45,899 nucleotides of DNA from an uncultured Eubacteriales bacterium (GCA_902796795.1 CADBQM010000304.1:1-45899); one strand, 5' to 3'. Counted from the first letter of the stretch, positions 1,187 to 44,364 are shown. Notes: generated from the letters alone by a model not told the origin. A program made the numbers and translations.

Positions 1187-2110
1187 TCAGATCACAAAGT
1201 TCTCCATATACTTCTTGCTGAGCTTCAGCGAATCCAGGATCTTCTCCCGGCTGCCTTCGAACGCACGGTCCTCGACCTCGATGACGGTGCAGCCGTCATA
1301 GCCGATGTCGGTCAGCGCGGACACGTATTTGCCCCAGTCCACGTCACCGAGACCCGGAAGCTTCGGAGACATGAAATCCAGCGGATACGCCATGATGCCG
1401 ACGTCGTTCAGCTTGTCCGGATAGACCTTGATGTCCTTGTAATGCACATGGAAGATCTTGTCCTTGAACTCGTAGATCGGCTTGATATAGTCGATCATCT
1501 GCCAGACGAAGTGCGACGGATCATAGTTGATGCCGAAGTTGTCGAACGGCAGCAGTTCGAAGACCTTACGCCAGATCGCGGGGGTGGTCATCAGGTTCTG
1601 TCCGCCCGGCCACTGATCCCGGCCGAACAGCATCGGGCAGTTCTCGATCGCGACCTTGACACCGAGTTCTTTCGCCAGCGTCAGGATGGGCTCCCAGTTT
1701 TCCCTGACCATCGCGAGGTTCTCTTCGACGCTCTTTGTCTGGTCACGGCCGATGAAAGTCGTCGCCATGCCGACGCCGAGCTTCGCGGATGCGCGGATCA
1801 CATTCTTCAGATGCTCCTGGCTGGCGGCCCGCTTTTCGAGGTCCGGATCCAGGTTGTTCGGATAGAATGCAAGGGAGGAGATGGTGATGCCCTTTTCCGC
1901 CGCATAGCTCTTCACATGTTCCGCATAGGCGTCATCCACGAGGACGCGCTCGCAGTCGATGTGGCAGGTGCCCGCGTAACGGCGCTCAGAGCCCGAGCCG
2001 CCCGGCCAGCACGCGACTTCCGCACAGGTGAAGCCGAGTTCCGCTGCCGTATCGATCATTTCCTCGAAGTTCCAATCCTCCAGGATCGCAGTGATAAAAC
2101 CAAGTTTCAT
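1187..2110 (-). CDS. Sugar phosphate isomerase/epimerase (xylose-isomerase-like TIM barrel), 307 aa
   Basis: ATG at 2110 preceded by GAAGGAGAG. Typical AP-endonuclease-2/xylose-isomerase-fold pattern (KLGFIT..., VAIENCP, INYDPSHF, HVHYKD, IEVED). Confidence 0.8.
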   Translation of the reverse strand: MKLGFITAILEDWNFEEMIDTAAELGFTCAEVACWPGGSGSERRYAGTCHIDCERVLVDDAYAEHVKSYAAEKGITISSLAFYPNNLDPDLEKRAASQEHLKNVIRASAKLGVGMATTFIGRDQTKSVEENLAMVRENWEPILTLAKELGVKVAIENCPMLFGRDQWPGGQNLMTTPAIWRKVFELLPFDNFGINYDPSHFVWQMIDYIKPIYEFKDKIFHVHYKDIKVYPDKLNDVGIMAYPLDFMSPKLPGLGDVDWGKYVSALTDIGYDGCTVIEVEDRAFEGSREKILDSLKLSKKYMENFVI

Positions 2111-2290
2111 GTTTCTCTCCTTCTTCCTTATATATATTCAAATATAATACTCTCTCATTCGGGCGCGGCTTCTCTGACCGCGCCTTATCAAGGCCGCGGG
2201 GCTCGAGCCTTTATGTAAGGAGGCGCTTAAGATCGCGCCGACGTCATAAACCTCGAGCCCAGGGCGGCCGGAAGAAACATCTGAGGGGCG

Positions 2291-3385
2291 TCAGGAAAAG
2301 ACGACCTCGCGCCCGGTGCGCGCACTTTCGTAGATCGCTTCGAGGATCTGCGTCACGACGAAGGCCTGCTCGGGCTTCACGCAGGGCTCGGTATCGTTCA
2401 GGATCGCGTCGATCCACTGGCGCGACTCGATCTCCTCCGGCTTCCCGGAAACACCGTCATAAAATGCCACGGAACCGGAAGTACTGACCTTCTCTTCCAT
2501 CAGCTGCCCGTATTTGCCGCGGTTGTAGACGACCTGGCCCGGATAGATATCGGCGCCGGCCTTCGTGCCGCAGAGCGTCGTGGAAGCCTCACGGTTCACG
2601 ATCGTGTTCAGGGCCCAGGAGGCGATCAGCTGGATCGTGGTCCCGTCCTTCATGACGATCTGGCCCATGGCGGAATCTTCGACCTCGTAGGTCTCCGGAT
2701 CCCAGGGCCCCCAGAGATTGCCGTCCACCGCTTCCGGAAGATTGCCGAGCTTGTAAAAGACAGAGCCTGTGACGCGTGCCGGTTCATACTTGTCCATGCA
2801 CCAGAGCGTCATATCGAGCGCGTGCGTGCCGATATCGATCAGGGGTCCGCCGCCCTGCAAGGCTTTGTTCGGGAATACGCCCCAGGTCGGGACCGCACGC
2901 CGGCGGATCGCATGTGCCTGCGCAAAATAGATATCGCCGAGTTCGCCGGCCTCTACCGCATGCTTCAGGTTCTGAAGCTCCGGACGGAAGCGGCTCTGAT
3001 AACCGATGGTAAACTTCTTTCCGCTCTCCTTCCAGGCTTCCATCATGCGCTGCGCGTCCGCGACTGTCGCGGCCATGGGCTTTTCGCACATGACGTGCTT
3101 GCCTGCCTTGAACGCGTCGATCGAGATCTGCGCGTGCGCCACGTTCGGCGTCAGCACGTGCACGACGTCGATCTCCGGCAGCGCCAGGAGTTCGTGATAA
3201 TCTTCAAAGACCGGGGCATCCTCCGTCCCGTATTCCTTCTTTGCCTTTTCCGCCCGTTCGACGATAATATCGCAGAATGCCGCGATGTCCAGGCGGTCCG
3301 CCTGCTTTTTCAGCGAGGGCAGATGTTTCTCGTTCGCAATGCCGCCGCAGCCGATGATGCCGACCTGTAATTTCCCGTTTTTCAT
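2291..3385 (-). CDS. Gfo/Idh/MocA oxidoreductase, DgpA-like (candidate glycoside 3-oxidising enzyme), 364 aa
   Basis: Trimmed to the ATG at 3385 (RBS AGGAGAGG). Rossmann motif VGIIGCGGIANEKH, EKP motif (VMCEKPMA), and GVFPNKALQGGGPLIDIGTHALD. It is a close paralog of 38804-39907 and lies adjacent to a DgpB/DgpC-like pair. Confidence 0.8.
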   Translation of the reverse strand: MKNGKLQVGIIGCGGIANEKHLPSLKKQADRLDIAAFCDIIVERAEKAKKEYGTEDAPVFEDYHELLALPEIDVVHVLTPNVAHAQISIDAFKAGKHVMCEKPMAATVADAQRMMEAWKESGKKFTIGYQSRFRPELQNLKHAVEAGELGDIYFAQAHAIRRRAVPTWGVFPNKALQGGGPLIDIGTHALDMTLWCMDKYEPARVTGSVFYKLGNLPEAVDGNLWGPWDPETYEVEDSAMGQIVMKDGTTIQLIASWALNTIVNREASTTLCGTKAGADIYPGQVVYNRGKYGQLMEEKVSTSGSVAFYDGVSGKPEEIESRQWIDAILNDTEPCVKPEQAFVVTQILEAIYESARTGREVVFS

Positions 3386-4817: not shown

Positions 4818-6434
4818 TTATTCCTCCGGCTTGATGCCGAAGATCGCGTACATCTTCCCGGAGCCCGGGAAACCTTTCCTTAAGGGCGCCGGATAGATCG
4901 CCATCAGCTCCTTATCATGGTCGATCCGCACGTCCGTGATCTTGTCAAAGCACATCGTCGGAACGCTGTCCGCCGTGACCTGCGGCCAGAACGGGATCTT
5001 GTCATGGTTCGGATCGCCGGTCGCTGCGAAGGTCGTCCAGGCGCCCGCCATCTGATCCTCCAGCCGTTCGGAGACCTCCGGGATATACTGAGCTTCGATG
5101 TAGGCGGAATTGCGGAAGACGTACGGCTCCTCCGCGTTATGCCACGGCACGGTCCCGTAGTTGAACGGTGACTCCAGGTTGAAGAGCCAGTTCCAGGTCG
5201 GGCCGCCGGCCGCTGCGCGGGCCTTTACGAAGGTCAGGATCTGCCGGCGCATGCCGGTATCCAGGAAGAGGACGTCTGCCGGATTGCGGTCCGGATAGGC
5301 TTTCTGCATCGCGGCTTTGACCGCTTCCGTTTGTTCGCCGAAGCGCTCCTTCAGATGCTTTTCCCGGGTCTCCTCGTCCCAGCGGTTCTTGATCCGGTCG
5401 CCGATCTCCTGATCGAAGTTACCGGAGAATTCGCCGAGCACCGTGCCCGCAAGCAGCGGGATCCCGACCGTCTCTTTCCGGAAGCCCACGTCGAGCGGAT
5501 GGCCGAGGTAATATTCCCCGTCCGGGATCGGTGCCCAGCCGACGCGCCTGCCGCGCTCGTTCATGACGTAGATCGCGTTCATCGTCGCCTGCGCGAGATC
5601 ATACCAGTCTACAGACTCGATCTTTTCCACTTCTCCGGGGGCGATGTGCAGGTACTTCAGGATCAGCGCCGCCGTCTCCTGTGCGTTCTCCCGTTTTTCC
5701 CGGATCCCTTCCGGACCGCCGTCGCCGCCCATGCCGCCGGATTCCATCACCGCGCGGTGGAAAAGCCCGTCCGCAGCCGGGGTCTGCATCAGCGCAAGCA
5801 CCTTCGCGCCGCCGCCGGACTGGCCGAAGATCGTGACGTTTTCCGGATCGCCGCCGAAGGAAGCGATGTTCTTATGCACCCACTCGAGCGCCGCGACCAG
5901 GTCCATCAGGCCGACGTTCGCGGAATCCTTATATTGTTCACCATAAGCCGAAAGGTCCAGATACCCCAGCACGTTCAGCCGGTGGTTGACCGAAACGACC
6001 ACGACGTCGTCCGTCGCGGAGAGGTTCTCGCCGTCGTAGGAAAGCAGCTCCACAGAAGAACCGGAGAACCAGCCGCCGCCGTGCAGCCAGACCATGACCG
6101 GCCGCTTCCGTTCCGGATCCAGGCTCTGCGTCCAGACGTTCAGGTACTGGCAGTGCTCGTTCTGCGGATAGAAGAAATGCGGGACCGTGAACTGGTCGTG
6201 CGGTACCGGCGTCGTGAGCTCGCTGCAGACGAAACCGTACTGGTAGGCCTCTTTGACCCCGGTCCAGCAGGCGGTCTCGTGCGGCGCGTGGAAGCGCTCC
6301 GCGTCGGCGTATTTGATGCCGCGGAAAATATATGTCGAATCGGTCTTCAGGCCGCGTACGGCGCCTTTCTGCGTCATGGCGACCGGATCGTCGTAGGTAC
6401 AGGTCACTTCCGTGACCAGCTTCTTCATATACAT
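4818..6434 (-). CDS. Carboxylesterase type B (para-nitrobenzyl-esterase family), 538 aa, cytoplasmic
   Basis: The RBS AGGAGG overlaps the stop of the upstream paralog. Motifs: FRGIKYA, HGGGW oxyanion region, and nucleophile elbow GQSGGGAK. No signal peptide. Confidence 0.9.
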
Positions 6435-6446
6435 GCCGGCACCTCC

Positions 6447-8057
6447 TTAAATACTCTGCCGCGGGCCGCCGCCGAAGCGCGTGACCGGCCTGCGGTCGTT
6501 GTTGTCCATGACGCCCCGTTCAGGCAGCGCTTCCATGAGCGCGTCGTCATGATGATACGCGAGCCGGGTCTCCCGGTCAAAGATCATGCAGGCGCCGTTA
6601 TCTTCTGTCACTGCCGGCCAGACCGGATTGCCCGCGCAGTTCGGATCACCGTCTGCCGCAAAGGCCACCCAGGCGCCGGTCATCTGGTCCTGCAGCCGTT
6701 CGGAAACGCCCGGGATGTAGGAAGCTTCCAGATAATTCGCGTTGTGGAACATATAGGCTTCCTCCGCGTTATGCCACGGGATCGTGCCGGAATTCAGCGG
6801 ACATTCAAGATTGAACATCCAGTTCCAGGCCGGCGCGCAGCCTTCTTCGGCGCGCTTCCTCGCATAGTCCCGCGATGCCGCACGGGTCGCCTTGTTGACA
6901 TAGAGGCAGTCCACGAGCTTCTGCTTCGGATAAGCCTGTTTCATGGCTTCGATGACTGCATCCGCCCGGTCCTTGTAGACCTTCCGGATCAGCGCGTCTA
7001 CCTGCGCGTCGTCCCAGTCGTTCTTGGAGCCCGGCGCGTAGACCTGGTTATAGTTCTGGTCGAATTCGCCGAGGACCGAGCCTACGAGCACCGGTACGTT
7101 TTTGTGCTCCTCAATGAAAGAATTGTTCAGGCCGCCGCCCATGAAGAAATCATCGTCCTTCACCGGCGCGAACATGATATGCATATGCTCGCGGTACGAA
7201 AGCTCGCTCTGGGCTTCCTGCGCCGCGCGCGCCAGCTTGTAATACGGGATCTTTTCGATCTCCTTCACGTTCTCCGGCGCGATGCCGAGCTTCTCAAGCA
7301 CTTCCGCCGTGAGCTTCCGTGCCGTCTCCGGCAGCATGTCCTTTTCGCCCTTGAAGAGGCCGGACTGGATGACCGCGCGGTGGAACAGGCCCTTTGCGGA
7401 CGGGGTCTGCAGCAGGCAGTTCACCTTCCCGCCGCCGCCGGACTGGCCCATGATCGTCACGTTGCCGGGATCGCCGCCGAAGGCCGCGATATTGTCGCGG
7501 ATCCAGCGCAGCGCCTCCAGGATATCCATCTGGCCAAGGTTGCCCGAATAGCGGTATTCTTCGCCATAGGCGGAAAGATCCAGATAGCCGATGCAGTTCA
7601 GGCGGTGGTTTAAGGAGACCACGACCACGTCGCCGAATTCCGCAAGCTCATGGCCGTCGTAGGCATAGAGCTCGATCGAGGAACCGGTGGCATAACCGCC
7701 GCCATGGATCCAGACCATGACCGGACGCTTTGCGTCTTCGTTAATATGCTTCGTCCAGACATTCAGGTACTGGCAGTCCTCATCCTGGATGTAATGATAA
7801 TGCGGGACATTGTACTCATCGTGTGCGATCGGCGTGTGCATCTCCATTGAGACCGGCCCGTAGATGATCGCTTCCTTACTGCCTTCCCAGGCCTCGACCG
7901 GCCGCGGCTCATGGAAACGCTCCGCGACGGCATAGCGGATGCCGCGGAAGATGTACATGTCCTCCTCATAAAGACCGCGGATCTTCCCCTTCGGCGTAAC
8001 AGCGACAGGGAAGTCCGGGTTCGAGATCACTGATCTCGTCAGTTTTCTTGGATACAT
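6447..8057 (-). CDS. Carboxylesterase type B, 536 aa (tandem paralog)
   Basis: Motifs FRGIRYA, IHGGGY and GQSGGGGK. Collinear similarity to 4818-6434 and 18541-20124. Confidence 0.9.
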   Translation of the reverse strand: MYPRKLTRSVISNPDFPVAVTPKGKIRGLYEEDMYIFRGIRYAVAERFHEPRPVEAWEGSKEAIIYGPVSMEMHTPIAHDEYNVPHYHYIQDEDCQYLNVWTKHINEDAKRPVMVWIHGGGYATGSSIELYAYDGHELAEFGDVVVVSLNHRLNCIGYLDLSAYGEEYRYSGNLGQMDILEALRWIRDNIAAFGGDPGNVTIMGQSGGGGKVNCLLQTPSAKGLFHRAVIQSGLFKGEKDMLPETARKLTAEVLEKLGIAPENVKEIEKIPYYKLARAAQEAQSELSYREHMHIMFAPVKDDDFFMGGGLNNSFIEEHKNVPVLVGSVLGEFDQNYNQVYAPGSKNDWDDAQVDALIRKVYKDRADAVIEAMKQAYPKQKLVDCLYVNKATRAASRDYARKRAEEGCAPAWNWMFNLECPLNSGTIPWHNAEEAYMFHNANYLEASYIPGVSERLQDQMTGAWVAFAADGDPNCAGNPVWPAVTEDNGACMIFDRETRLAYHHDDALMEALPERGVMDNNDRRPVTRFGGGPRQSI

Positions 8058-8078: not shown

Positions 8079-9176
8079 TTATTCAAATCCCTGGAACACC
8101 TTTATGCCGGTATAGACCTTCGGCGCTTCAAGGCCGTCAAGCACACGCGCTGCGCCGCTCGCCATAGCCTCCATCTCGAATTCACCGGGATATGCATAGA
8201 CCGGGGCGATAAAGCCGCAGTCTTCTTTCAGCTTCTCGACAAGCTCCTTGTTGTGGACGATCCCGCCGCCGAGAAGGATCGCGTCGACCCGGCCCTTCAG
8301 GACCGCCGCCATCGCGCCGATGCCCTTGGCGATCTGGTAGATGAACGCCTCCCAGACGAGCGCCGCATAAGTATTGCCGTCCGCGATCATCTGCTGGACC
8401 TCCAGCGCATCGGAGGTGCCCAGGTGGCTCACAAAACCGCCGCTCCGGGTCGTCAGGGCGCGCAGTTCCTTTGCGCTCTTCCCTTCCATGTATTCGATGA
8501 ATTCCGCGACCGGCACCGCGCCGCAGCGGGTCGGGGCCATCGGGCCTTCACCGCCGACGATATCATAGCCGTCGATCATACGCCCCTTCTGATGCGCGGA
8601 CACGGAAACGCCGCCGCCGATATGGCAGACGATGAAATTGCAGTCTTCATAGCGTTTTCCTTCCGAAGCCGCATGGCGGATCGCCGTCTCCTTCAGGTTC
8701 AGCGCATGCAGATGGACGTTGCGGTAAACGCCTTTGATGCCCGTGATGCGGGCCACGTCCTGCAGCTCGTCCACGTCCGGCGGATTGACCGCGAAGGCCG
8801 GGACGCCGTATTCATCGGCAAAAGCCCTGGCGATGCTCGGTCCGAGGCCGGCGGGATGGATCACGCCGTTCGCCGCGTGCAGGGAATGCTGAAGCACCAG
8901 TTCCGTGACTTCGTAGACGCCGCCTTCCATCGCTAAAAGACCGCCGCCGCGCCCTACACAGGCCGCAAGGCCGTTTAAGTCCACGTTGTTCTCCGCAAGC
9001 GCGTTCCGTATCGTTTCCATGCGGTACGGCAGCTGCGACTCCTGGTCCGTATACTGTGACAGGACCTGTGCGTCATGGCTCACGTTCACCGAGAAGATCT
9101 TCTCGTCGCCCTGAAACAGTGCGATCTTGGTAGAAGTGGAGCCGGGGTTGACTGTCAGAATCTTATAGTTTCCCAT
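8079..9176 (-). CDS. buk: Butyrate kinase (ASKHA acyl-phosphate kinase), 365 aa
   Basis: The N-terminus KILTVNPGSTSTKIALF is typical of butyrate kinases. RBS CAGGAGAAACC. Confidence 0.85.
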   Translation of the reverse strand: MGNYKILTVNPGSTSTKIALFQGDEKIFSVNVSHDAQVLSQYTDQESQLPYRMETIRNALAENNVDLNGLAACVGRGGGLLAMEGGVYEVTELVLQHSLHAANGVIHPAGLGPSIARAFADEYGVPAFAVNPPDVDELQDVARITGIKGVYRNVHLHALNLKETAIRHAASEGKRYEDCNFIVCHIGGGVSVSAHQKGRMIDGYDIVGGEGPMAPTRCGAVPVAEFIEYMEGKSAKELRALTTRSGGFVSHLGTSDALEVQQMIADGNTYAALVWEAFIYQIAKGIGAMAAVLKGRVDAILLGGGIVHNKELVEKLKEDCGFIAPVYAYPGEFEMEAMASGAARVLDGLEAPKVYTGIKVFQGFE

Positions 9177-9209: not shown

Positions 9210-9647
9210 TTATTCATCCAGTTCGAAAAACAATGTCGTATAGCGGCCCATGTCGTAGAAGCAGGGCTCTACACGGACGGGCAGCTTTTCGCTGATCTCG
9301 CGGGCTTTCCTTTTGTTGATGCCGAGGATGACCGCGTTGATCGCTGGGCCTTCATCGAGCTCAACTTCCCCGCAGACGTATTTCAGTCCCCGGTCCTCCA
9401 GCTCCAGCCGCGCGTTCATGACGCCTGTAAATACAAAGCTTTTCAGCCCGCCCTTGCCGCTTAAGGTCGTCCACTCCGTCTCATGGTAGCCGCAGGTATT
9501 GCAGGCAAGATGCGGCGGGAATTCGATCGCACCGCATTCTTTGCACTTTCTCGCGTAGATCACGCCCTCTGCGAGTCCCTTCCAAAATATCTCGACGATA
9601 TGCTCCGGGTTCCAGAATTCTTCTGTTTTCATTCTTTCCGTGCTCAT
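9210..9647 (-). CDS. DUF35 protein (rubredoxin-like Zn ribbon plus OB fold), 145 aa
   Basis: RBS AAGGGGGA. CKECG...CNTCG Zn-ribbon pairs. Clear paralog of the C-terminal 140 aa of the 42622-44364 fusion protein. Confidence 0.85.
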   Translation of the reverse strand: MSTERMKTEEFWNPEHIVEIFWKGLAEGVIYARKCKECGAIEFPPHLACNTCGYHETEWTTLSGKGGLKSFVFTGVMNARLELEDRGLKYVCGEVELDEGPAINAVILGINKRKAREISEKLPVRVEPCFYDMGRYTTLFFELDE

Positions 9648-9662: not shown

Positions 9663-10379
9663 TCAGAATCCCGACCGCAGGATGATGGCACGCACATTCT
9701 GGGCGCCGCCGAAGCCCCGCAGGAACGTATGCTTCGGGAGCTTCTTCACCTGGCGTTCGCCGGCTTCGCCGCGCATCTGGGTGACCGCTTCGAAAACGTC
9801 TGCCATGCCGGACGCCGCAAAAGCATGTCCGTAGGAGGTCCGTCCGCCGTGAGTATTCATGGGCTTGTCGCCGTCGTAGGCGATCCGGCCGCCGAGATAC
9901 CGTCCGTAGGCCCGGTCAAAGATCGAATCGGGATCCGGGAACAGGACTTCCGAGGTCATCGGAACACGCATGAACGCCGGGGTATTGCCTTCCGGCATGC
10001 CGGTCCCCTGCTCGCTGCAGCCGCTGAGGACGATATCGTACATCCCGCTCGCCACCGCCATAACGGCCTCTTCCAGCGCGATGTAGCCGGTGCAGCAGCC
10101 TTCGGAATGAGAGACAGATCCTTTGCCGCGCATGCCGAACCAGTCCGCGACCTGCAGGTTCGGGGTAATGCAGCGGTTCAGGATGTAGGGATTTGCAGAA
10201 CCGTGGAAGAAAAACTGGACGTCCCTGGGCTCCACCCCGGCATCCTTCATGGCGTCCAGGGCTGCATGGCCGAAAAGCTCGCCGTTCGTCAGGCCCTTAT
10301 AGACAGGATTTTCCACCCCGTTGAAGAATGGTGTCTTCCGTGATGTCCGCAGCATCCTTTTCAAATGCCATTGCCGCAA
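9663..10379 (-). pseudogene. Internally deleted SCP-x-type thiolase-like gene (relic of a paralog of 42622-44364)
   Basis: The 238-aa ORF aligns to residues ~21-165 and ~355-430 of the fusion protein (SEGCCTGY vs SEACCTGY; YDGDKPMNTHGGRTSYGHAFAASG vs YDGDKPINTNGGRTSFGHAHAASG). About 190 central residues and the first beta-strand (IIGVG) are missing. Confidence 0.7.
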
Positions 10380-10430
10380 ATTCGATCAGTTTTTGATCAG
10401 TTCTTCTCTTTCCTTTTTTTCCTCCTTCAT
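10324..10430 (-). pseudogene. Frameshifted 5' stub of an acyl carrier protein gene
   Basis: ATG at 10430 overlaps the MATE stop (ATGA). The reading MKEEKKEREELIKN stops at TGA. Adding one A to the A5 run (plus-strand T-run 10390-10394) restores ...ELIKKLIEFAAMAFEKDAADITEDTIL, an ACP helix-I/loop pattern. Homology then switches, out of frame, into the thiolase relic. Confidence 0.45.
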
Positions 10431-11803
10431 TCAACTGTTTTTTCAGGGTTTATTTTATATCTTCCGGAGAAGTAGAACACGATGCCGATAAAGAACGGTG
10501 TAAAGCCGGCGATCGCGTCGCCCAGCCAGAAACCGTAATGCTTCATGCCGAATGCAAGGCCGAACAGCAGTGCAAGGCCGATCCGCATGACGACACCGTC
10601 CAGGATGGCCGTAAAGAAATTGATCCTGTAATTGCCGGAGCCGTTGATCAGGGCGCTCATCGCAGACCGGAGGGCGCTGCCCACAAACAGCAGGACGGCG
10701 ATCGGGATATACCCCTTGGCGATCGCCAGCACGTCCGCATCGTCCGCGCTGGTAAAAATGCCGAAGATCTGCTCGGGGAACAGGATGATCGCCAGTGAGA
10801 ATACCGCGGCGATGGTCAGGGTGATGATCAGCATCTTCTGCAGGATCTTTTTCACCCGGCCGTACTCTTTTGCGGCGATGTTCTGGCCGATCATCGTGGA
10901 GCCGGCCGTATTCATCGCGTTCGAGACGAGGTTCGCTACGCTGCCGATCTTGTTTGCGATGCCGGCAAACGCGGAGACCGCCACACCGTAGGAATTGATG
11001 AAAGAGTTCACGAACATCTTGCTGATCTGGATCGATGCCGACTTGATAGCCATCGGTGTCCCGAGCTTGACCAGCGAAGAAAGCATCTCCTTATCCCAGC
11101 GGAAGAACCAGGCCGGTTTAATATGCAGCGAGAATTTTTCCCGATTGCGGTACAGGAAGATCGCACAGGCGACAAAGCTGACCGCCTGCGAAAGTACGGT
11201 CGCCAGTGCAGCGCCGCCCGCGCCCATCTCGAGGAAAATGACGAAAACGACGTCCAGTCCCAGATTCATCACGGCAGCGATACTGATGAAGATGAACGGG
11301 TGTCTGGAATCGCCCATGCCGCGCAGGATCGCACTGACGACGTTATAGCCGTAGATGAACACCAGACCGATCATGCTGACAAGGGAGTAGGCCACTGCGC
11401 CGGAAAAAGCTTCTTCCGGCGTGTTCATCAGCCGCAGGATCGGCTGCTGGATCAGGATGCCGAGGACACTTAAGATCACGGCCGCAGCCAGGAGAAAACC
11501 GGCGGTGGTCCCGACGAAACGGCCGATCTTTTCCTGCTGCCGGCTGCCGATATAGCGGGCGATCAGGACCTGGGCGGCTGCCGAAAAGCCCATCACGATG
11601 AATGTAAGGAAATGGACGACGTCACCGCCGACGGATACAGCCGAGATCCCGGCCTTTCCCAGGACCTTTCCGACCACCATCATGTCGACCATGTTGTAAA
11701 CGACCTGCAGCAGGTTTGAAAGGAACAGCGGGGAAGCAAAGCTGATCAGCTGTTTTGTGATATTGCCGGTCGTAAAATCGGTGATACCGCTTTTATTCGC
11801 CAC
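10427..11803 (-). CDS. MATE family efflux transporter, ~458 aa
   Basis: Polytopic membrane protein with the MATE N-terminal signature (TTGNITKQLISFASPLFLSNLLQ). The likely start is the GTG at 11803, preceded by GAGGAGGAAACT. The track start at 11824 is also GTG and would overlap the upstream gene by 32 nt. Confidence 0.85.
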   Translation of the reverse strand: MANKSGITDFTTGNITKQLISFASPLFLSNLLQVVYNMVDMMVVGKVLGKAGISAVSVGGDVVHFLTFIVMGFSAAAQVLIARYIGSRQQEKIGRFVGTTAGFLLAAAVILSVLGILIQQPILRLMNTPEEAFSGAVAYSLVSMIGLVFIYGYNVVSAILRGMGDSRHPFIFISIAAVMNLGLDVVFVIFLEMGAGGAALATVLSQAVSFVACAIFLYRNREKFSLHIKPAWFFRWDKEMLSSLVKLGTPMAIKSASIQISKMFVNSFINSYGVAVSAFAGIANKIGSVANLVSNAMNTAGSTMIGQNIAAKEYGRVKKILQKMLIITLTIAAVFSLAIILFPEQIFGIFTSADDADVLAIAKGYIPIAVLLFVGSALRSAMSALINGSGNYRINFFTAILDGVVMRIGLALLFGLAFGMKHYGFWLGDAIAGFTPFFIGIVFYFSGRYKINPEKTVE

Positions 11804-13361
11804 AGTTTCCTCCTCTCCCGGCACTGCCGGTCTCTTCTTCGATCCTCTTCATACAGACGGCGACGGCATGGCTGCGCACGAACTGCTGCAGCTCGTTCTC
11901 GTCCTCCGGTCCCGCGATCATGGTGTCCCCGATATCGAGGACATTCCTTTCCTCCGCACTGTAGGGCCGCCATTCCGGCCGCGCGCCTGAGACGCCTTCT
12001 TTTCCGGCTCCGTTCGGATCGCCGTATTTGATGAAATTGCACCAGTATTCCTGGACATTTTCCGCGATCTCGTCATCGAGGGCCGCGGCATTCGGGATCT
12101 CCCGCTGCCGGCCGAGAAGATACTGTGTTTCCAGCCCGTGCCTTGCGATCCCGGACGCTGGATCCTTGTGGGAGAAAGAAAACACATAGACCGGTTTTCT
12201 GCCATCAGCAGCCTGCAGCTCCGCGAATGCCTTTGCCGCACAGTGCCCGGTATGCATGTCATGCATGAGACGCGCGACCTCCTGCTTCGTTTCCATGCCG
12301 AAACGTTCACAGAGCTTCACGCCCTCTTCGCCGAAGAGCTCTCTTGTCTGCTGCCGGAAGACCGCCGGATCGATGAACAGTGCGAAACCGCCGGCCTCGT
12401 CTTTTGTCGTGCCCACCAGATATGGGATGTTATGGTTCCGGAGGGTCATCGTGCACTCGTTGGAAGGGATCGGCAGCAGGTATCCGTCACCGCAGACCCC
12501 GAGCGAGACACCGTAATGCAGGCGCCGCCGGAAAGCGGAATCCGGGTTCACGATCAGTTCTTCATAGCTCATTTCCCGGAGTTCCGCAACAGACGTTTTG
12601 CCAAGTTCCTTCACGAACTCGATACCGGCTGCTTCCACTTCATGAAGCGTATCGACCTTGAAATCCTCCGGATAGGAGGTCGGATCCATGCCGATGCCGC
12701 TCTCGATGATCGCACCGGCGATCTTTCCTTCGGTCAGCGGGGAACAGGCCATCGCCTGCGTAGAGATCGCGCCGCCGGAGCACCCGCCGACCACGATATG
12801 GTCCGGATCTCCGCCAAACGCCGCGATGTTCTCCCGCAGCCAGTCGATCGCCGCGACCTGGTCCAGGTGTGCATAGTTCCCGGAAGTCCCGTAGGGGCTT
12901 TCCGCATCCAGTTCCGGATGCGCGAAATAGCCCATGATGCCCAGGCGATAATTTGCAGTAACATAGACGATACCGCGCTTCACAAAGGGCGCAGGGCTTG
13001 CGTTCCTGCCGTTTGCAGAACCGCAGCAGCAGGCGCCGCCATGGTACCACAGAAAAACGGGAAGTTTCGCCTCACGATCCAGCGTGGGCGTCCAGATATT
13101 CATGTAGAGGCAGTCTTCCGACTGCGTAAGCTCATATTTGCCTTCTGTCGGGTCATTTCCAGGGATCGCCTGCGACGGCGCCTGCAGCGCGATCGCGCTG
13201 AACTCGAGTGCTTCCCGCACGCCGTCCCATGGTTCCGGCTTTTCCGGCGCCCGCCACCGAAGATCTCCGACCGGCGGCTTCGCGAACGGAACGCCTAAGA
13301 ATTCATGGAAGCCGTCACGTTCCCGCCCGAGCAGTTTCCCGTAAGCTGTACTGACGATCAT
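11793..13361 (-). CDS. Carboxylesterase type B, ~522 aa (divergent fourth paralog)
   Basis: Classic N-terminus YGKLLG...FLGVPFAKPPVGDLRW, HGGA region, and elbow GGCSGGA. The ATG at 13361 has better spacing from GAAAGG than the track start at 13370. Confidence 0.85.
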   Translation of the reverse strand: MIVSTAYGKLLGRERDGFHEFLGVPFAKPPVGDLRWRAPEKPEPWDGVREALEFSAIALQAPSQAIPGNDPTEGKYELTQSEDCLYMNIWTPTLDREAKLPVFLWYHGGACCCGSANGRNASPAPFVKRGIVYVTANYRLGIMGYFAHPELDAESPYGTSGNYAHLDQVAAIDWLRENIAAFGGDPDHIVVGGCSGGAISTQAMACSPLTEGKIAGAIIESGIGMDPTSYPEDFKVDTLHEVEAAGIEFVKELGKTSVAELREMSYEELIVNPDSAFRRRLHYGVSLGVCGDGYLLPIPSNECTMTLRNHNIPYLVGTTKDEAGGFALFIDPAVFRQQTRELFGEEGVKLCERFGMETKQEVARLMHDMHTGHCAAKAFAELQAADGRKPVYVFSFSHKDPASGIARHGLETQYLLGRQREIPNAAALDDEIAENVQEYWCNFIKYGDPNGAGKEGVSGARPEWRPYSAEERNVLDIGDTMIAGPEDENELQQFVRSHAVAVCMKRIEEETGSAGRGGNCGE

Positions 13362-13380
13362 CGTCCGCATCCTTTCTGCT

Positions 13381-17271: not shown

Positions 17272-17284
17272 TATGCCTTTTCCT

Positions 17285-33254: not shown

Positions 33255-33650
33255 TTACTCGATCACAAAGTCTGCGACGCATTCCGTGATCCAGGGGAAA
33301 GGCATGTAGGAAGGCGCAATGTGCTGGATCGCTTTGAGATGATGCGGGCCCTTTGCGAGGCCGCCCGGCTTCTTTACGTTCACCGTGGCATATTCGCCGA
33401 ATTCCCAGCGGTAATCCGGATCCACGACCGTGCTCATCTCGTCCAGGGTGAAGGTCTCGCCGTTCACCGTCATGCTGATGGCTTCTGCGGGAATATCCTC
33501 TCCGTCGATGTTCACCTTGATGTCGTGGACGATCGAGAGGGTGATCCCTCTGTAGTACTGTGATTTCCAGCGGAAGCGGAAGCCTGTCGCTTCGCCGTTT
33601 TCTTCGATGTTCTGGAACCCCTGCGGGTCAAACATCACACGTGCTGCCAT
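33255..33650 (-). CDS. C-glycoside deglycosidase beta-subunit-like small protein (second copy), 131 aa
   Basis: Trimmed to the ATG at 33650, preceded by CAAGGAGGAACC. Motifs GFRFRWKSQYYRGITLS...NIDGEDI...VKKPGGLAKGPHHLK parallel those of 3473-3913. Confidence 0.7.
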   Translation of the reverse strand: MAARVMFDPQGFQNIEENGEATGFRFRWKSQYYRGITLSIVHDIKVNIDGEDIPAEAISMTVNGETFTLDEMSTVVDPDYRWEFGEYATVNVKKPGGLAKGPHHLKAIQHIAPSYMPFPWITECVADFVIE

Positions 33651-38803: not shown

Positions 38804-39907
38804 TCAGAAGCGGATCTCGTGACCGGTCTCCGCTGCCTTGTAGATCGCGTCAAGCACTTTGGTAACGACCAGCGCTTCTTCCGGCTTGACGAGCGGCTCT
38901 GTCCCGTTGATGATGGCGTTCAGCCACTGACGGTTGTCGATCACGCCGGGTTCCGCGGAACCGCCTTCAAAGTAAGCGACCGCGCCGCCGCCTGCGAGCA
39001 CTTCGTCCATCAGCTGGCCGTTCCGGCCGCGGTTGTAGACCACGGACTGGCTCGGATAGCTCATGCCGGAGATGATCTCCGCACCGGCCTTGGTGCCGCA
39101 GAGGGTCGTCGCCGCTTCCTTGGCATCCCTTAAGTTGATCGCCCATGCAGCTTCCAGGCTGATGGTCGCGCCGTTCTTCATCTTGATGAAGCCCATTGCG
39201 CTGTCTTCGACTTCATAGGTCTCCGGATCCCAGGGACCGAATACGTTGCCCTCGGTCGCCTGCTGCAGGTGGCCAAGTTTATAAAACACGCTGCCGCTGA
39301 CGGATTCCACGTCATAGTTGTTCATGCACCACAGGGTGATGTCCAGTGCGTGGGTGCCGATGTCGATCAGGGGACCGCCGCCCTGCAGGGCCTTGTTCGG
39401 GAATACGCCCCAGGTCGGTACGCCGCGGCGGCGGATCGCATGTGCCTTGCCGTAGTAGATCTCACCGAGATCGCCGGCTTCGCAGGCTGCCTTCAGGTTC
39501 TGGACTTCCGGACGGAAACGGTTCTGATAGCCGATCGTGAACTGCTTGCCGCTCTTCTTCCAGGCTTCGATCATCTTTTCCGCGTCTTCGGGGCTGTGGC
39601 TCATCGGCTTCTCGCAATATACATGCTTGCCCTGAGCAAATGCCTCGACCGTGATCTCGCAGTGGCTGACGTTGGGGGTGCAGACATGGACGACGTCCAC
39701 ATCCGGATTCGCGCAGAGCTCATGATAGTCTTCACAGACCTGCGCGCCGGGCACGCCGTACTCTTCGGCTGCCTTTTCCGCTCTCTCGAGGATGATGTCG
39801 CAGAATGCGACCACTTCGCAGAGGTCACTGTTCGCCTTCATTGCCGGAAGGTGCTTCTGGTTCGCGATACCGCCGCAGCCGATCACGCCGATTCTAAGTT
39901 TTGCCAT
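38804..39907 (-). CDS. Gfo/Idh/MocA oxidoreductase, DgpA-like (second copy), 367 aa
   Basis: RBS AAGGAGAAAC. Collinear with 2291-3385 over its full length (IGVIGCGGIANQKH, CEKPM, GVFPNKALQGGGPLIDIGTHALD, WDPETYEVEDSAMG). Confidence 0.8.
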   Translation of the reverse strand: MAKLRIGVIGCGGIANQKHLPAMKANSDLCEVVAFCDIILERAEKAAEEYGVPGAQVCEDYHELCANPDVDVVHVCTPNVSHCEITVEAFAQGKHVYCEKPMSHSPEDAEKMIEAWKKSGKQFTIGYQNRFRPEVQNLKAACEAGDLGEIYYGKAHAIRRRGVPTWGVFPNKALQGGGPLIDIGTHALDITLWCMNNYDVESVSGSVFYKLGHLQQATEGNVFGPWDPETYEVEDSAMGFIKMKNGATISLEAAWAINLRDAKEAATTLCGTKAGAEIISGMSYPSQSVVYNRGRNGQLMDEVLAGGGAVAYFEGGSAEPGVIDNRQWLNAIINGTEPLVKPEEALVVTKVLDAIYKAAETGHEIRF

Positions 39908-39949: not shown

Positions 39950-41014
39950 TCAGGCTTCAAAAGGCACTGCCTTTCCGGTCCTTGCGGATTCACGGAAAGC
40001 ATCCATGATGCAGAGGTCGCGGCGGACCTGGGGCAATGTCACCTCAAAGGGCGTCCCTTCCTCCATCGCACGGATGTAGCCCTTGAACCAGTCAAGGTCA
40101 TTTGTCGGCACGTCCGGCAGGGGCTCTTCATAGAGCAGGCCTTCTTCCGGCGGTCCGAAGGAACGGGTGGGTCCGGCGGAGGTCATCGTGATCTTGCCGG
40201 GAACGTTCTCCAGCAGATGCCGTGTACGAACGATCCGCCGGGTCTCCTTCATGCCATTCAGGAAGTCAATATCGAGCAGCGCCGTTCCCGTATCGCCGGC
40301 GACGATCCACGCACGCTTGGGCGTCAGGAAGTAGGTACCAAGCTCGATCTCGGCAGTAAGGCCGCTCTCAAAGCGGAAGACCAGGAGGAAGTAATCGTCG
40401 ACTTCCTTGTTGATCACGTTCTTGATGTCCGCATAGACGGACACGACCTTTTCGTCCACCATGTCCAGGATCTGGTCGATCAGATGGATGCCCCAGTCAT
40501 AGAGCATGCCGCCGCCCATTTCCGGATAGATGTGCCAGTCGTGCATGTTGCCGTTGACGCCGTACATCATGGAACGGACAAGATAAGGCTTTCCGACCAG
40601 GCCTTGTTTCAGCACGGCCTTCATCGGCACGAAATCCGGGTCGTGGCGGCGCTGCTGATGCACCGTCATGCGTACGCCGGCCTTTTCTGCCTCCGCGACC
40701 ATCTCGTCAAAGTCCGCGACCGTCAACGCCGCCGGCTTTTCACAGATGATGTGCTTGCCCGCGCGGGCCGCCTTCACAGCCGCTTCCTTGTGGAGCGGGT
40801 TCGGGATCACGATCAGTACGGTATTGACTTCCGGATCCGCGATCAGCTCGTCCATGTCGGTGTACTTCCGTACGCCTTCCGGCGCGTCATCCATCTGGGA
40901 AGGAACGATATCGCAGATCGCTTCGATCGAGATCTCCGGAATCCGCTTCAGCAGGTTCATATGCTCGTGGCCCATAAAACCGTAACCCAGGATGCCAAGT
41001 CTGATATCAGCCAT
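39950..41014 (-). CDS. Gfo/Idh/MocA oxidoreductase (distinct subfamily), 354 aa
   Basis: RBS GGAGG. Motifs LGILGYGFMGHEH and ICEKPAA. The C-terminal alpha/beta domain differs from that of the DgpA-like pair. Confidence 0.8.
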   Translation of the reverse strand: MADIRLGILGYGFMGHEHMNLLKRIPEISIEAICDIVPSQMDDAPEGVRKYTDMDELIADPEVNTVLIVIPNPLHKEAAVKAARAGKHIICEKPAALTVADFDEMVAEAEKAGVRMTVHQQRRHDPDFVPMKAVLKQGLVGKPYLVRSMMYGVNGNMHDWHIYPEMGGGMLYDWGIHLIDQILDMVDEKVVSVYADIKNVINKEVDDYFLLVFRFESGLTAEIELGTYFLTPKRAWIVAGDTGTALLDIDFLNGMKETRRIVRTRHLLENVPGKITMTSAGPTRSFGPPEEGLLYEEPLPDVPTNDLDWFKGYIRAMEEGTPFEVTLPQVRRDLCIMDAFRESARTGKAVPFEA

Positions 41015-41029: not shown

Positions 41030-41326
41030 TCATTGCTCTTTGTAGTCCGGCGCGTAATTGTAGAACGGTGCGAGAAGATCTCCCATATCGTCCTTGTGCG
41101 CCGCGATGTTCTCCCGCACGGTGCCCATCATGTCATGCAGCTCATGATAATGCTCATAGAGCCCGGCAAGCGTGTTCCGTGCGCGTTTCTTCTCCGCGTC
41201 GGAGAAACTGACCCGGATCTTTCCGTCCGTCACTTCCAGGTACCCGTAGATGCCGCACAGGGGGCATTCCACTTCGGTGCCGTTTCCGGTCTTCGCGCCG
41301 CCGACGGAGATCGCAAGGATTTTCAC
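41030..41326 (-). CDS. Small protein (98 aa) that looks like a collapsed relic of the 31226-32173 flavoprotein family
   Basis: GTG start at 41326 after GGAGAAACAAAAC. ILAISVGGAKTGNGTE resembles CLVGVGGARTENWT of the 315-aa protein. EVECPLCGIYGYLEV...FSDAEKKRAR...EH resembles HVECAICGIHGVVKM...FSQAEQDRSR...EH. Only one CxxC pair remains. Confidence 0.45.
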   Translation of the reverse strand: MKILAISVGGAKTGNGTEVECPLCGIYGYLEVTDGKIRVSFSDAEKKRARNTLAGLYEHYHELHDMMGTVRENIAAHKDDMGDLLAPFYNYAPDYKEQ

Positions 41327-42586: not shown

Positions 42587-42621
42587 TGTTGTTCATCCTT
42601 TCTTTTCTATTGATTTTCGGA

Positions 42622-44364
42622 TCACTGATCCTCATCAAGGTCAAATACGACGGTCTTAAAGCCATCCCGCTGGAAGATGGACGCATGTACATTCAGCGGC
42701 AGCTTGTCCAGCAGTTCCTTGCGGCTCTTCTTGGTGATCCCGCGTACAACGGCGTTCAGGCGGCTGCCCTCTTCCAGTTCGATCTCACCGTAGGCAAATT
42801 TGCCGAGCGCCTTGTATTCGGGTTTGTTGCTGAGCGGCGCAGGCAGGACGATGGAATGCATCTTTGCCTTTCCGCTGATCTCGTACCATTCGGTCTCGAG
42901 GCTGCCGCAGCTGTTGCAAGCATAGACCGGCGGGAACTCGACCGCGCCGCACTTCGGGCACTTCCGGCCCATGATCTTTCCTTCTTCCAGGAAATCGTAG
43001 AAGCCCTGGACGATCTTCTGCAGCTCGACCACGGACCCTTTCTTTTCTTCTGCCGGCGCCGGCGTGACTTCCCCGAGCGTGCGGATGATATAGGTGCAGA
43101 TGTTCTGCGCGCCGCCGTAGCCGCGGAGCATGGCCGTCTTCGGCAGCTTCTTCACCTGGCGTGCGCCGCACTCTCCGCGCATCTGTTTCACGGCCGCGTA
43201 AAGGTCCGCAAGGCCGGATGCCGCATGCGCGTGACCGAAGGAGGTGCGTCCGCCGTTCGTGTTGATGGGCTTGTCCCCGTCATAGGCCGTACGGCCTTCG
43301 CAGATGTACTTCCAGCCTTCGCCGTAGGGAAGGTAGCCCGCAATCTCTGCGGAAACAAGATGGGAGGTGATGATGAAGTCGTTGGCGTAGAAGAGGTCGA
43401 GCTCTTCCGGCTTCACACCGGTGACTTCGTAGACCTGGCGGACCGCCTCTTCGGTCGCCGTGACTTCAAAGTGCGGTGTGGTGGCTTCGCAGGCCGCACA
43501 GCCCGCGCCGAGCACTTCGATCGCCGGATGGGACTTATTGCCCATGTATTTGTCGACGAGCTCTGTCGCGCAGACGATCACCGCCGCGGCGCCGTCGCAC
43601 TTCAGCTCGATCCCGCTCATCCGGAGGAAGTCGCCGTTCCTGGGATTGTAGGGAGAACGCATGTAGTCCATGACGTCGTCATAGCCGGCTTTCTTTGCCA
43701 GTTCTTCATACGGCGTTCTTTCGATCGCCAGCTCGTCCATGACCGCGTTCCTGCGGTTGTTCAGACTCATGTGGATGAGGGTCTCGTCCATCTCCTCATC
43801 GGTCAGCCCGCGGGTACGCTTGTACCATTCCGCGGCATCGTCGTAGATCAGCTCCTGTCCTGCCATCAGGCTCCGCGTGTAATTACGGTCATAGAGCCAG
43901 GCTGTAGTCTGCAGGAACTTCTCCATGGTCATTTTTTCGCGCTTGTAGGGATGGTTGGGCACTGCCACGCTGTCGCCGAATTCCACACAGCCGGAAAGCA
44001 CACAGTTATACTTGCCGGAAGCGACGGCATTCACAGCCTGCTCGACTGCATAGTAGCCGGTGCAGCAGGCTTCGGAATGATGGATCGACGCCTTGCCCTT
44101 CATCCCGAACCAGTTCGCGATCTGGATATTCGGGGTCAGGTAATTGGAGCCATTCAGCGGGGATGCTTCACCATGGAAATAGAAATCAATGTCCTGCGGG
44201 TTTACCCCCGCGTCCTCCATGGCGGAAAGCGCCGCGTAGCCAAAGAGTTCACCTTCCGTCAGGCCGTTCGTTTCCGGCCGGTCGACGGTGTACATGAACG
44301 GGGTGCAGCCAACGCCGATGATCGACACGCTGCGGGAATAGGGATTCACCTTGGTCTGATTCAT
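42622..44364 (-). CDS. Fusion protein: SCP-x-type thiolase-like enzyme plus DUF35 (Zn ribbon/OB fold), 580 aa
   Basis: RBS GAGGAGGAGGA. Thiolase part: IIGVGCTPF, active-site Cys context HHSEACCTGY, NTNGGRTSFGHAHAASG. DUF35 part: a linker, then CPKCGAVEFPPVYACNSCG and an OB fold. It is the first gene after the AT-rich promoter region. Confidence 0.85.
   Translation of the reverse strand: MNQTKVNPYSRSVSIIGVGCTPFMYTVDRPETNGLTEGELFGYAALSAMEDAGVNPQDIDFYFHGEASPLNGSNYLTPNIQIANWFGMKGKASIHHSEACCTGYYAVEQAVNAVASGKYNCVLSGCVEFGDSVAVPNHPYKREKMTMEKFLQTTAWLYDRNYTRSLMAGQELIYDDAAEWYKRTRGLTDEEMDETLIHMSLNNRRNAVMDELAIERTPYEELAKKAGYDDVMDYMRSPYNPRNGDFLRMSGIELKCDGAAAVIVCATELVDKYMGNKSHPAIEVLGAGCAACEATTPHFEVTATEEAVRQVYEVTGVKPEELDLFYANDFIITSHLVSAEIAGYLPYGEGWKYICEGRTAYDGDKPINTNGGRTSFGHAHAASGLADLYAAVKQMRGECGARQVKKLPKTAMLRGYGGAQNICTYIIRTLGEVTPAPAEEKKGSVVELQKIVQGFYDFLEEGKIMGRKCPKCGAVEFPPVYACNSCGSLETEWYEISGKAKMHSIVLPAPLSNKPEYKALGKFAYGEIELEEGSRLNAVVRGITKKSRKELLDKLPLNVHASIFQRDGFKTVVFDLDEDQ

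Follow-up and report, generated by a model that had tools for sequence, protein, structure and literature searches.

A mosaic gene array for the probable catabolism of flavone C- and O-glycosides, with a conserved thiolase-like/DUF35, ACP, Pta and Buk module, in an uncultured Eubacteriales bacterium

The stretch CADBQM010000304.1:1-45899 (assembly GCA_902796795.1) of an uncultured Eubacteriales bacterium, 45,899 nucleotides long and hereafter called the window, carries on its minus strand a run of 33 consecutive genes (positions 1187-44364; 31 intact genes and two relics), as established from the listing of open reading frames (ORFs), inspection of start codons and Shine-Dalgarno (SD) sequences, and Pfam. 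This array combined C-deglycosylation genes, reductases, an importer, glycosidases and esterases with a module composed of a thiolase-like protein fused to a DUF35 domain, an acyl carrier protein (ACP), a phosphotransacylase-like enzyme (Pta) and a butyrate kinase (Buk). On balance, the best explanation for this combination is a mosaic island for flavone C- and O-glycosides in a Lachnospiraceae-like Firmicute of the rumen or gut, equipped with a module that may yield energy from the aglycone. That the locus is a C-glycoside/flavone locus is very probable, and the module itself probably belongs to flavonoid-aglycone catabolism.

Three Gfo/Idh/MocA oxidoreductases of the array consisted, according to Pfam, of an N-terminal Rossmann domain and a Gfo C-terminal domain, and were similar over their full length to the solved DgpA or DgpA2 proteins (Table 1). 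Two of their genes, at 2291-3385 and 38804-39907, shared 74% nucleotide identity over the reported 300-nt stretch. In two places, the gene of an AP_endonuc_2 TIM-barrel alpha subunit adjoined that of a PF19906 beta subunit, the arrangement by which C-glycoside deglycosidases (CGDs) are recognized. The structure 7BVS, closest to the first alpha subunit, is one which we take to be DfgA of Eubacterium cellulosolvens, a species with published DfgAB structures, and at this level of identity the metal-binding and acid/base residues are likely to be conserved; the second alpha subunit was more distant, with matches to 7XRF and 7BVR, presumably DgpC chains. The xylose-isomerase-like TIM barrel at 1187-2110 is a candidate keto-glycal hydratase or DfgCD-type partner. 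The original prediction had proposed an oxidise-and-cleave mode of C-deglycosylation, and this proposal was well supported, as the array encodes very near homologs of solved DgpA, DgpA2 and DfgA/CGD proteins together with two PF19906 beta subunits. The same cytoplasmic two-step logic of oxidation followed by elimination, with a Gfo/Idh/MocA 3''-oxidase and an alpha TIM-barrel/beta PF19906 C-C lyase, is found in the dgp operon of Dorea sp. PUE (DgpA, DgpB-C) and in dfgABCDE of E. cellulosolvens. However, those operons are compact (5-8 genes), whereas the three oxidases and two lyase pairs of the window are scattered across 40 kb, with genes for reductases, esterases and glycosidases and the thiolase module in between.

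Flavone reductase (FLR) was represented by an intact gene whose product shared 31% identity with 7D38, over an alignment spanning the flavodoxin-like FMN domain and the C-terminal CP.CH...C.CG motifs. This structure is that of the FLR of Flavonifractor plautii, and a homolog with 29.7% identity was experimentally required for apigenin conversion in C. ljungdahlii (PMC7862272). Elsewhere, in L067, the array that holds the module also has an FLR-like gene sharing 59% identity with the characterised FpFLR. The C-deglycosylation and FLR parts of the window locus are new members of known families. The second reductase was an Fe-S flavoprotein whose FAD domain had vinylphenol reductase VprA as its best NCBIfam match. 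The domain aligned end to end with the VprA model (6-480 of 481) and in this resembles VprA and other FAD_binding_2 ene-reductases, but the score of 302 bits was half of the cut-off, and VprA has no counterpart of the Fe-S and NAD(P)H modules to which the domain is fused or next to which it is encoded. The flavodoxin-fold reductase and the Fe-S flavoprotein that had been foreseen as reducing the aglycone or a sugar enone were thus recognized as a full-length FLR homolog and an enzyme with a catalytic domain nearest to vinylphenol reductase. A 123-aa SnoaL-like (NTF2-fold) protein, not encoded in the window, occurred in four module loci (L018 5146-5514, L028, L061 and L066), in L018 between the FLR and Buk genes; it could act as an isomerase or cyclase on flavanone or chalcone.

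Within the module, the thiolase-like protein was compared among 27 sequences. The motifs HHSEACCTGY (C100/C101) and GHAHAASG were invariant, so that the nucleophilic Cys and the GH motif were present, but the C-terminal motif, RGYGGAQN, was Cys-free in all of them. Classical CoA-dependent thiolases rely on a Cys-His-Cys set whose second Cys belongs to a C-terminal CxG motif, and the absence of this second catalytic Cys sets the thiolase-like family outside that class. The family is small and distinct, with 99 matches at E <= 1e-30 among 1.84 billion cluster representatives. Invariant His residues were H64, H95, H96, H279, H298, H378 and H380, among which counterparts of the phenol-binding residues of PhlC (His56, Tyr124, His144 and His347) may lie. 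In PhlC, monoacetylphloroglucinol transfers its acyl group to Cys88 and phloroglucinol leaves, in a CoA-free reaction with a DUF35 partner (PMC6392133). PhlACB (PpATase) and MucABC resemble the window protein in associating a thiolase-fold subunit bearing a catalytic Cys with a DUF35 Zn-ribbon/OB partner, and the CoA-independent acyl-Cys chemistry of PhlC on acylphloroglucinols is what we propose for the window enzyme. They differ from it by their low identity (~19-20%), by the presence of a PhlA/HMGS-like subunit, which the window lacks, and by the ties of the window enzyme to an ACP, a phosphotransacylase and a kinase in a catabolic context.

As these solved DUF35-partnered acyltransferases are biosynthetic, and as a dedicated ACP with a phosphopantetheinyl transferase (PPTase) is typical of biosynthetic clusters, the module could be thought to run in the opposite direction, Buk and Pta loading a short acid on the ACP and the thiolase-like/DUF35 protein performing C-acylation or condensation like PhlACB and MucABC. 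Such a role is highly improbable, given that the module sits among catabolic genes (glycosidases, C-deglycosidases, importers) and ene-reductases, that the loci inspected showed no ketoreductase, dehydratase, polyketide synthase or nonribosomal peptide synthetase partner and no PhlA/HMGS-like subunit, and that its carriers are energy-limited fermenters. As in substrate-level phosphorylation by Pta-Ack or Ptb-Buk, the module combines a full-length PTA_PTB enzyme with an ASKHA acyl kinase, which in the window scores above its cut-off; the two genes were linked in 37 of 40 loci and are usually adjacent within the module. Unlike in these systems, the proposed thioester donor would be a dedicated acyl-ACP instead of acyl-CoA, and the Pta-like protein remained below the curated NCBIfam Pta cut-off (265 vs 310 bits).

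Scanning one genome per species confirmed the module in 211 stretches. The best relatives (~90% protein and ~80% nucleotide identity) belonged to rumen Lachnospiraceae and Pseudobutyrivibrio metagenome-assembled genomes, stand-alone thiolase-like homologs with 85-89% identity were present on many Lachnospiraceae and Blautia contigs, and fused homologs with 60-70% identity were found, for example, in Dielma fastidiosa. Neighbours were counted in the 40 module loci whose flanks measured 5 kb or more in both directions: ACP and Pta genes were present in all 40, followed by Buk (37), FLR-like (32), GltD-like (19), FAD_binding_2 (FAD2; 17), DgpA-like Gfo (9), AraC::GH39 (8) and CGD subunit genes (3-4), the VprA-like Fe-S flavoprotein reductase being beside the module in 17-19 loci. 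The consensus operon comprised a divergent PucR-type regulator gene, optional FLR-like, FAD2, GltD/NuoG-like subunit and NuoF-type Fe-S genes, then thiolase, DUF35, ACP, Pta, Buk and DUF1097, and finally optional genes for a metallo-beta-lactamase, a major facilitator superfamily (MFS) carrier and a PPTase. Neighbour clusters of the PPTase family (PF01648) recurred in 9 and 7 of the loci, which argues for the ACP being a working carrier. Relatives displayed the same genes in a reshuffled order, as in L018 (FAD2-CGDb-CGDa-FLR-Buk-MFS-Thl::DUF35-ACP-Pta), a classical signature of functional linkage. Literature searches returned no paper tying DUF35, thiolase, ACP, Pta or Buk to flavonoids; both the module itself and the physical link of C-deglycosylation and FLR genes to an aglycone pathway are undescribed in the searchable literature.

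Two variants of the module deserve mention. The Dielma fastidiosa-type loci L005-L007 (~8300-14950) carried a minimal version, with a PucR-type regulator, thiolase::DUF35, ACP, Pta, a kinase and a 244-aa PF00756 esterase but no sugar genes, and offer a clean system for finding the direct substrate of the module. Pseudobutyrivibrio xylanivorans MZ8 possessed a second, paralogous ACP and thiolase-like pair (L013 20129-21713; 39% and 49% identity to the window proteins) ~8 kb downstream of the main module.

The neighbour counts also bear on the possibility that the module and the Fe-S flavoprotein act on the sugar-derived enone left by C-deglycosylation (2-hydroxy-3-keto-glucal) and not on the aglycone. 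In the window and ~8 further loci, the module does adjoin CGD and Gfo genes, and the fate of keto-glycals in gut Firmicutes is only partly known. Nevertheless, this is very unlikely, and sugar-enone processing was rejected as the main role of the module: Gfo/CGD genes were found in only 9 of the 40 loci compared with 32 for FLR-like genes, and the TIM barrel with weak similarity to keto-glucal hydratase would already give the known route to glucose.

According to the literature, the established gut pathway proceeds through FLR, then Fcr (or chalcone isomerase (CHI) and an enoate reductase), and finally phloretin hydrolase (Phy). In C. butyricum, the genes are ordered flr-fcr-phy and flavones are degraded without CHI (PMC11868195). 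A 2024 genomic survey of flavonoid enzymes covers only CHI, DgpABC/DfgEBA, Fcr, FLR, GluD/DfgCD, Phy and rhamnosidases. The order of the module loci (FLR-like, VprA-like reductase, thiolase/DUF35-ACP-Pta-Buk) parallels flr-fcr-phy, and this parallel suggests a non-orthologous displacement of Fcr and Phy. Like the flr-fcr-phy clusters of C. butyricum and C. ljungdahlii and the FLR of F. plautii, these loci would have an FLR-family ene-reductase first, a reductase next and a C-C cleaving function last. In contrast to those clusters, Fcr would be replaced by the VprA-like FAD_binding_2 enzyme with NuoF/NuoG/GltD-type electron input, and Phy, which is of the 2,4-diacetylphloroglucinol (DAPG)-hydrolase family, by thiolase-like/DUF35-ACP-Pta-Buk. 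The suggestion closing the original prediction, that unassigned modules take the place of CHI and phloretin hydrolase, is in line with this conserved module travelling with the FLR-like and VprA-like reductases in flr-fcr-phy order.

The proposed route can be described as follows. Glycosides would be imported by the ATP-binding cassette (ABC) system with its lipoprotein solute-binding protein (SBP) and by the MFS carrier, the 3''-OH of the sugar would be oxidised by the three DgpA-type NAD-enzymes, and the C-C glycosidic bond would be broken by the two CGD alpha/beta lyases, one DfgAB-like and one more distant. A pair formed by a TIM barrel and a Gfo enzyme probably recycles the keto-sugar or removes O-linked glucose, and GH3, GH5 and the seven esterases, all cytoplasmic, may trim extra sugars and acyl groups, which is the least supported element of the scheme. 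The released flavone would then be converted to a flavanone by the FLR-family ene-reductase. Steps from import to FLR rest on close homology, and the later ones on the conserved neighbourhood and the flr-fcr-phy order. The NAD(P)H-linked Fe-S flavoprotein with its VprA-like FAD domain, in the place of Fcr, would open the C-ring of the flavanone reductively to give a dihydrochalcone. In the place of phloretin hydrolase, the conserved Cys (C100/C101) of thiolase-like::DUF35 would attack the aryl-ketone carbonyl in a PhlC-like manner, phloroglucinol would leave, and the 3-arylpropionyl group would be handed from the Cys to the dedicated holo-ACP. The Pta-like enzyme would convert the acyl-ACP to an acyl-phosphate, from which butyrate kinase would make ATP. 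This specific mechanism of dihydrochalcone thiolysis is tentative and less likely than not. Its generalization, that the module together with the FLR-like and VprA-like Fe-S reductases performs a CoA-independent retro-Friedel-Crafts cleavage of dihydrochalcones or other acylphloroglucinols, keeps the energy of the C-C bond as ATP and takes over from Fcr and phloretin hydrolase in considerably more than a hundred species of gut and rumen Clostridia, is possible but rather doubtful.

Several observations weigh against these proposals. Regarding gene content, the FLR-like gene was absent from the flanks in 8 of the 40 well-flanked loci, and in the Dielma loci L005-L007 the module was accompanied by an esterase alone, with no reductase match. 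A non-systematic survey, made up of the Pfam/NCBIfam annotations of the window proteins and of ~30 neighbour-cluster representatives, detected no homolog of CHI, Phy or the phloroglucinol pathway. The original prediction had suggested that the array may encode a complete route, but neither the window nor the neighbours examined revealed a gene that would account for what becomes of phloroglucinol. A PhlA (KAS III/HMGS-like) subunit was likewise missing from the window and from the annotated recurrent neighbour clusters, which places the enzyme outside the PhlACB type. Buk lies in the window 33 kb and several terminators away from Thl::DUF35-ACP-Pta, and scores as an ordinary butyrate kinase. 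As for the thiolase-like protein, archaeal, SCP2 and BbsB thiolases matched its sequence more closely (7e-28 to 2e-20) than PhlC did (2e-12). Foldseek scored all DUF35-partnered thiolase-like families alike, PhlC-type acylases being third (TM ~0.73), and the fold is hence non-discriminating; the AlphaFold model of the fusion was of moderate quality (pLDDT 69.5). Finally, the proposal assumes that thiolysis of an aryl ketone is thermodynamically able to drive ATP synthesis.

The module may also take part in flavonoid catabolism through the cleavage of another beta-dicarbonyl, such as 3,5-dioxohexanoate (triacetate) derived from phloroglucinol, yielding acetyl- or acetoacetyl-ACP and then ATP. 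It would be an ACP version of the classical end of phloroglucinol fermentation, which consists of thiolytic cleavage and substrate-level phosphorylation; the thiolase-like enzyme, Pta and a short-chain acyl kinase scoring as a true butyrate kinase suit such a function, and the esterase and metallo-beta-lactamase hydrolases recurring beside the module could open the cyclic dione. This is nonetheless fairly unlikely. Neither a phloroglucinol reductase of the short-chain dehydrogenase/reductase type, nor a cyclohydrolase, nor a BKACE-type lyase was present among the annotated recurrent neighbour clusters, and the steadiest partners of the module are ene-reductases of the FLR-like and VprA-like kinds, whose targets are aryl-conjugated C=C bonds.

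The middle of the array contained the importer, the glycosidases and most of the esterases. Alternatively to a flavonoid island, these genes could represent a Gram-positive polysaccharide utilization locus (PUL) for esterified cell-wall oligosaccharides (ABC importer, GH3, GH5 and seven esterases), merely juxtaposed on the leading strand with unrelated C-glycoside and thiolase units. The large family-1 SBP with two permeases is typical of oligosaccharide importers, the ABC unit is flanked by terminators, leading-strand bias, as suggested by the GC skew, would account for the co-orientation, and the PF00756 esterases matched the feruloyl-esterase part of a xylanase/esterase model, at 83 and 37 bits, far below its cut-off. 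Against these points, the array has no secreted endo-glycanase and no glycosidase or esterase with a signal peptide, and does not qualify as a PUL despite its SBP, permeases and glycosidases. Orthologs of the SBP-GH5 genes adjoin DgpA-like Gfo and AraC::GH39 genes in other genomes, homologs of the same GH5 and esterases accompany FLR and the thiolase module in L010 and L076, and the C-glycoside degrader Catenibacillus scindens possesses a 50%-identical GH5. We consider such a juxtaposition unlikely. Homologs of GH5 (40% identity) were located between L-rhamnose mutarotase and GH2 genes in a common human-gut species (L091/L092 9529-14153); these neighbourhoods hint at a GH5 family acting on rhamnose-containing plant glycosides. 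Among the esterases, COesterases 1 and 2 formed a tandem duplicate and COesterase 4 (18541-20124) was a third paralog (68%). Export of products by the multidrug and toxic compound extrusion (MATE) transporters is a conjecture.

The AraC::GH39 regulator recurred next to DgpA-like genes, SBP-GH5 units and the module (L001, L012, L013, L037, L077, L079, L088 and L089), some loci having two or three copies. Catenibacillus genomes were reported to contain 21-28 'GH39' genes (PMC11170127), which may largely be regulators of the AraC::GH39 type and not glycosidases.

Most of the architectural claims of the original prediction were retained, with corrections. Its count of about 37 minus-strand genes or relics was slightly too high (33 here), its family assignments being correct for the transporters, the seven hydrolases, GH3, GH5, Pta, ACP, Buk and thiolase::DUF35. 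The array was 96% coding, with a median intergenic gap of 24 nt and nine gaps of more than 60 nt. Among the overlaps listed, those at 36587-36590 and 42344-42347 (ATGA) and at 16099-16106 (8 nt) are real, but at 10427-10430 the TGA abuts the ATG of a 14-codon ORF ahead of the thiolase relic and no ATGA overlap exists; the MATE and COesterase genes overlap by 11 nt. A lipoprotein-type N-terminus was found in the SBP alone (MKKALALILVLVLAVGMLAGC), as had been stated, and no signal peptide was seen on any enzyme of the array, N-termini having been inspected by eye and with no dedicated predictor. GC skew was negative along the window, as would fit a minus strand replicated as the leading strand, and turned slightly positive only at 22000-26000. 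In a Firmicute, such a placement makes co-orientation weak evidence for co-transcription; what rises above chance is instead that the genes make functional sense together and that the same neighbours recur in other loci.

All three internal terminators on record were confirmed (Table 1). They are not the only candidates, however, as further structured gaps were detected: the gap at 20125-20285 has a hairpin followed by a T-rich tail, that at 38705-38803 a hairpin with a weak T tail, and those at 2111-2290 and 33651-33806 long GC-rich hairpins without T-runs (-76 and -66 kcal/mol; z = -5.0 and -5.1). The latter two are possibly mRNA processing or stability elements, or insertions resembling miniature inverted-repeat transposable elements. 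Rfam gave no riboswitch or leader family at threshold in the window, hairpins included, and the intergenic hairpins were not conserved in the fetched ~80%-identical relatives, except for a 60-nt match of the SBP-GH5 gap to L088. With at least 3-5 terminators or structured gaps, the nine longer gaps and the internal regulator gene, a single transcription unit does not hold. The array is best seen as a mosaic catabolic island in which several transcription units were joined by rearrangement; two of its genes, Thl::DUF35 and NuoF-FeS::FAD2, are fusions of genes that are separate elsewhere. Only 26 nt separate the stem at 31216-31185 from the start codon of the regulator, so that expression of this gene has to rely on read-through or on a promoter within FLR. 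The genes following terminators, permease 1 and AraC::GH39, share a near-identical leader and start preceded by a T-run (GGAGATCATTATGGCA; 25720-25754 and 31146-31180), which suggests expression via terminator read-through. GC content of the importer unit (22000-26000) was 0.51-0.53 compared with 0.55-0.63 elsewhere, which fits a separately acquired unit or a membrane-protein composition.

Two relics testify to rearrangement of the locus. The 98-aa ORF at 41030-41326 retains MKILAISVGG (the N-terminal 10 aa) and the C-terminal ~87 aa of an FLR-like protein, joined by an in-frame deletion, and L072 has an intact FLR-like gene at the equivalent position; we rejected this ORF as a new small protein and regard it as what is left of another FLR-like gene. 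The module, too, is present a second time in degenerate form, as the 14-codon ORF and the thiolase relic (9663-10440), an intact DUF35 gene and the only Buk gene of the window, with no ACP or Pta. At the upstream end, the AT-rich promoter region that had been predicted proved to be a real divergent intergenic stretch, with a sigma-70-like site on the minus strand at 44446-44417 (TTGACA-18-TGtTATTGT, with a TG extension and a TATTGT -10). Opposite the plus-strand MATE gene that follows, the minus ORF 44970-45473 was dismissed as spurious and antisense. At the other end, an open frame with a hydrophobic segment leaving the window on the left, next to the extracytoplasmic function (ECF) sigma factor gene, probably codes for an anti-sigma factor, and the plus-strand ORF 65-448, with no family match, is probably spurious.

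Table 1. Features of the window, with functions assigned by homology
Feature	Position	Strand	Evidence and remarks
ECF sigma factor gene	463-1125	-	3' of the array
Xylose-isomerase-like TIM barrel	1187..2110	-	AP_endonuc_2 3e-38; weak match to 2-hydroxy-3-keto-glucal hydratase 8RO4 (5.5e-8)
Gfo/Idh/MocA oxidoreductase, third, DgpA-type	2291..3385	-	510 bits to DgpA
DfgA/DfgB-type CGD pair	alpha 3931-4803, beta 3473-3913	-	Alpha 561 bits, ~83% identity to 7BVS, 290/290 aa; beta PF19906
Tandem type-B carboxylesterases	4818..8057	-	COesterase 1e-82 and 3e-84; ~71% mutual nucleotide identity; homologs in L076
Butyrate kinase	8079..9176	-	NF002834 412 bits (cut-off 222); only acyl kinase in the window; in 37/40 module loci
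Stand-alone DUF35 protein, second copy	9210..9647	-	zf-ChsH2 and OB
Thiolase-like relic	9663..10379	-	~190-aa internal deletion, N-terminus lost, no SD; 77% nucleotide identity to 43103-43296
MATE transporter	10427..11803	-	MatE 2e-50
Hydrolase block: COesterase, Esterase (PF00756), Abhydrolase_10, MFS transporter, Esterase (PF00756), COesterase	11793..20124	-	Pfam; last two with homologs beside the module in L010
GH5, cytoplasmic	20286..22010	-	PF00150; best solved relative putative beta-xylosidase GE32
Terminator, hairpin and T-run in SBP-GH5 gap	22143-22011 (22120-22068)	-	Between the SBP and GH5 genes
ABC importer: two permeases (24741-25733, 23832-24728), lipoprotein SBP (22144-23760)	22144..25733	-	BPD_transp_1 x2, SBP_bac_1; collinear with L088, 74-75% nucleotide identity
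Terminator	25904-25884	-	Ahead of permease 1
GH3, cytoplasmic, swapped catalytic domains	25944..28757	-	GH3_C, Fn3-like, then GH3_N; no signal peptide
AraC-family regulator::GH39-like domain	28784..31159	-	HTH_18/HTH_AraC and Glyco_hydro_39
Intrinsic terminator, strong	31185..31216	-	14-bp stem, 10 GC pairs, T-run; immediately upstream of the regulator gene
FLR-family ene-reductase	31226..32173	-	Sole PDB match 7D38, 1.8e-38, residues 3-308 vs 2-291
CGD alpha subunit 2 (TIM barrel)	32186..33241	-	240 bits to 8QVC; ~130 bits to 7XRF/7BVR
CGD beta subunit 2	33255..33650	-	PF19906 6.5e-38; start is the SD-preceded ATG at 33650
NuoF-type Fe-S, 2x[4Fe-4S] and FAD_binding_2 reductase fusion, 927 aa	33807..36590	-	Pfam; two genes in most relatives
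NuoG-like Fe-S and GltD-like NAD(P)H flavoprotein subunit, 705 aa	36587..38704	-	Fer2_4, NADH-G_4Fe-4S_3, Fer4_20, Pyr_redox_2; NF009410 453 bits; in 19/40 module loci
Gfo/Idh/MocA oxidoreductase, DgpA ortholog (C-glycoside 3''-oxidase by homology)	38804..39907	-	649 bits over 362 aa to DgpA 7XR9
Gfo/Idh/MocA oxidoreductase, DgpA2 type	39950..41014	-	337 bits to 9M37, 'DgpA2 with isoorientin'
FLR-like relic, 98 aa, internal deletion	41030..41326	-	69% identical to residues 246-332 of the intact L072 gene
Phosphotransacylase, Pta-like, 332 aa	41349..42347	-	PTA_PTB 2e-86; ATGA-coupled to the ACP gene; 40/40 loci
Dedicated acyl carrier protein, 80 aa	42344..42586	-	PP-binding 5e-11; 40/40 well-flanked loci
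Thiolase-like::DUF35 fusion, 580 aa	42622..44364	-	Pfam Thiolase_C_1 and zf-ChsH2; two genes in most relatives
Divergent AT-rich promoter region	44365..44621	.	GC 0.47; between thiolase::DUF35 (-) and MATE gene (+)
MATE-family transporter, divergent	44622..45899	+	426 codons, still open at the window end; identity 23% with the in-locus MATE and 28% with a MATE in L076

Hydrolytic C-C cleavage captures none of the bond energy as ATP. It is with such a step that the gut flavonoid pathway known from the literature (CHI, Fcr, FLR and Phy) ends. If the module is indeed the cleavage step, flavonoid aglycones would be a direct source of ATP for many Lachnospiraceae and Oscillospiraceae, and an ACP-dependent retro-Friedel-Crafts thiolase would constitute a new enzyme reaction of biocatalytic interest. 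To our knowledge, only a few flavonoid-degrading isolates have been obtained, and in silico censuses using Phy and Fcr alone would in that case undercount flavonoid degraders. Even without the cleavage step, the locus physically joins C-deglycosylation genes to aglycone catabolism in bacteria of the rumen, where forage diets are rich in C-glycosylflavones.

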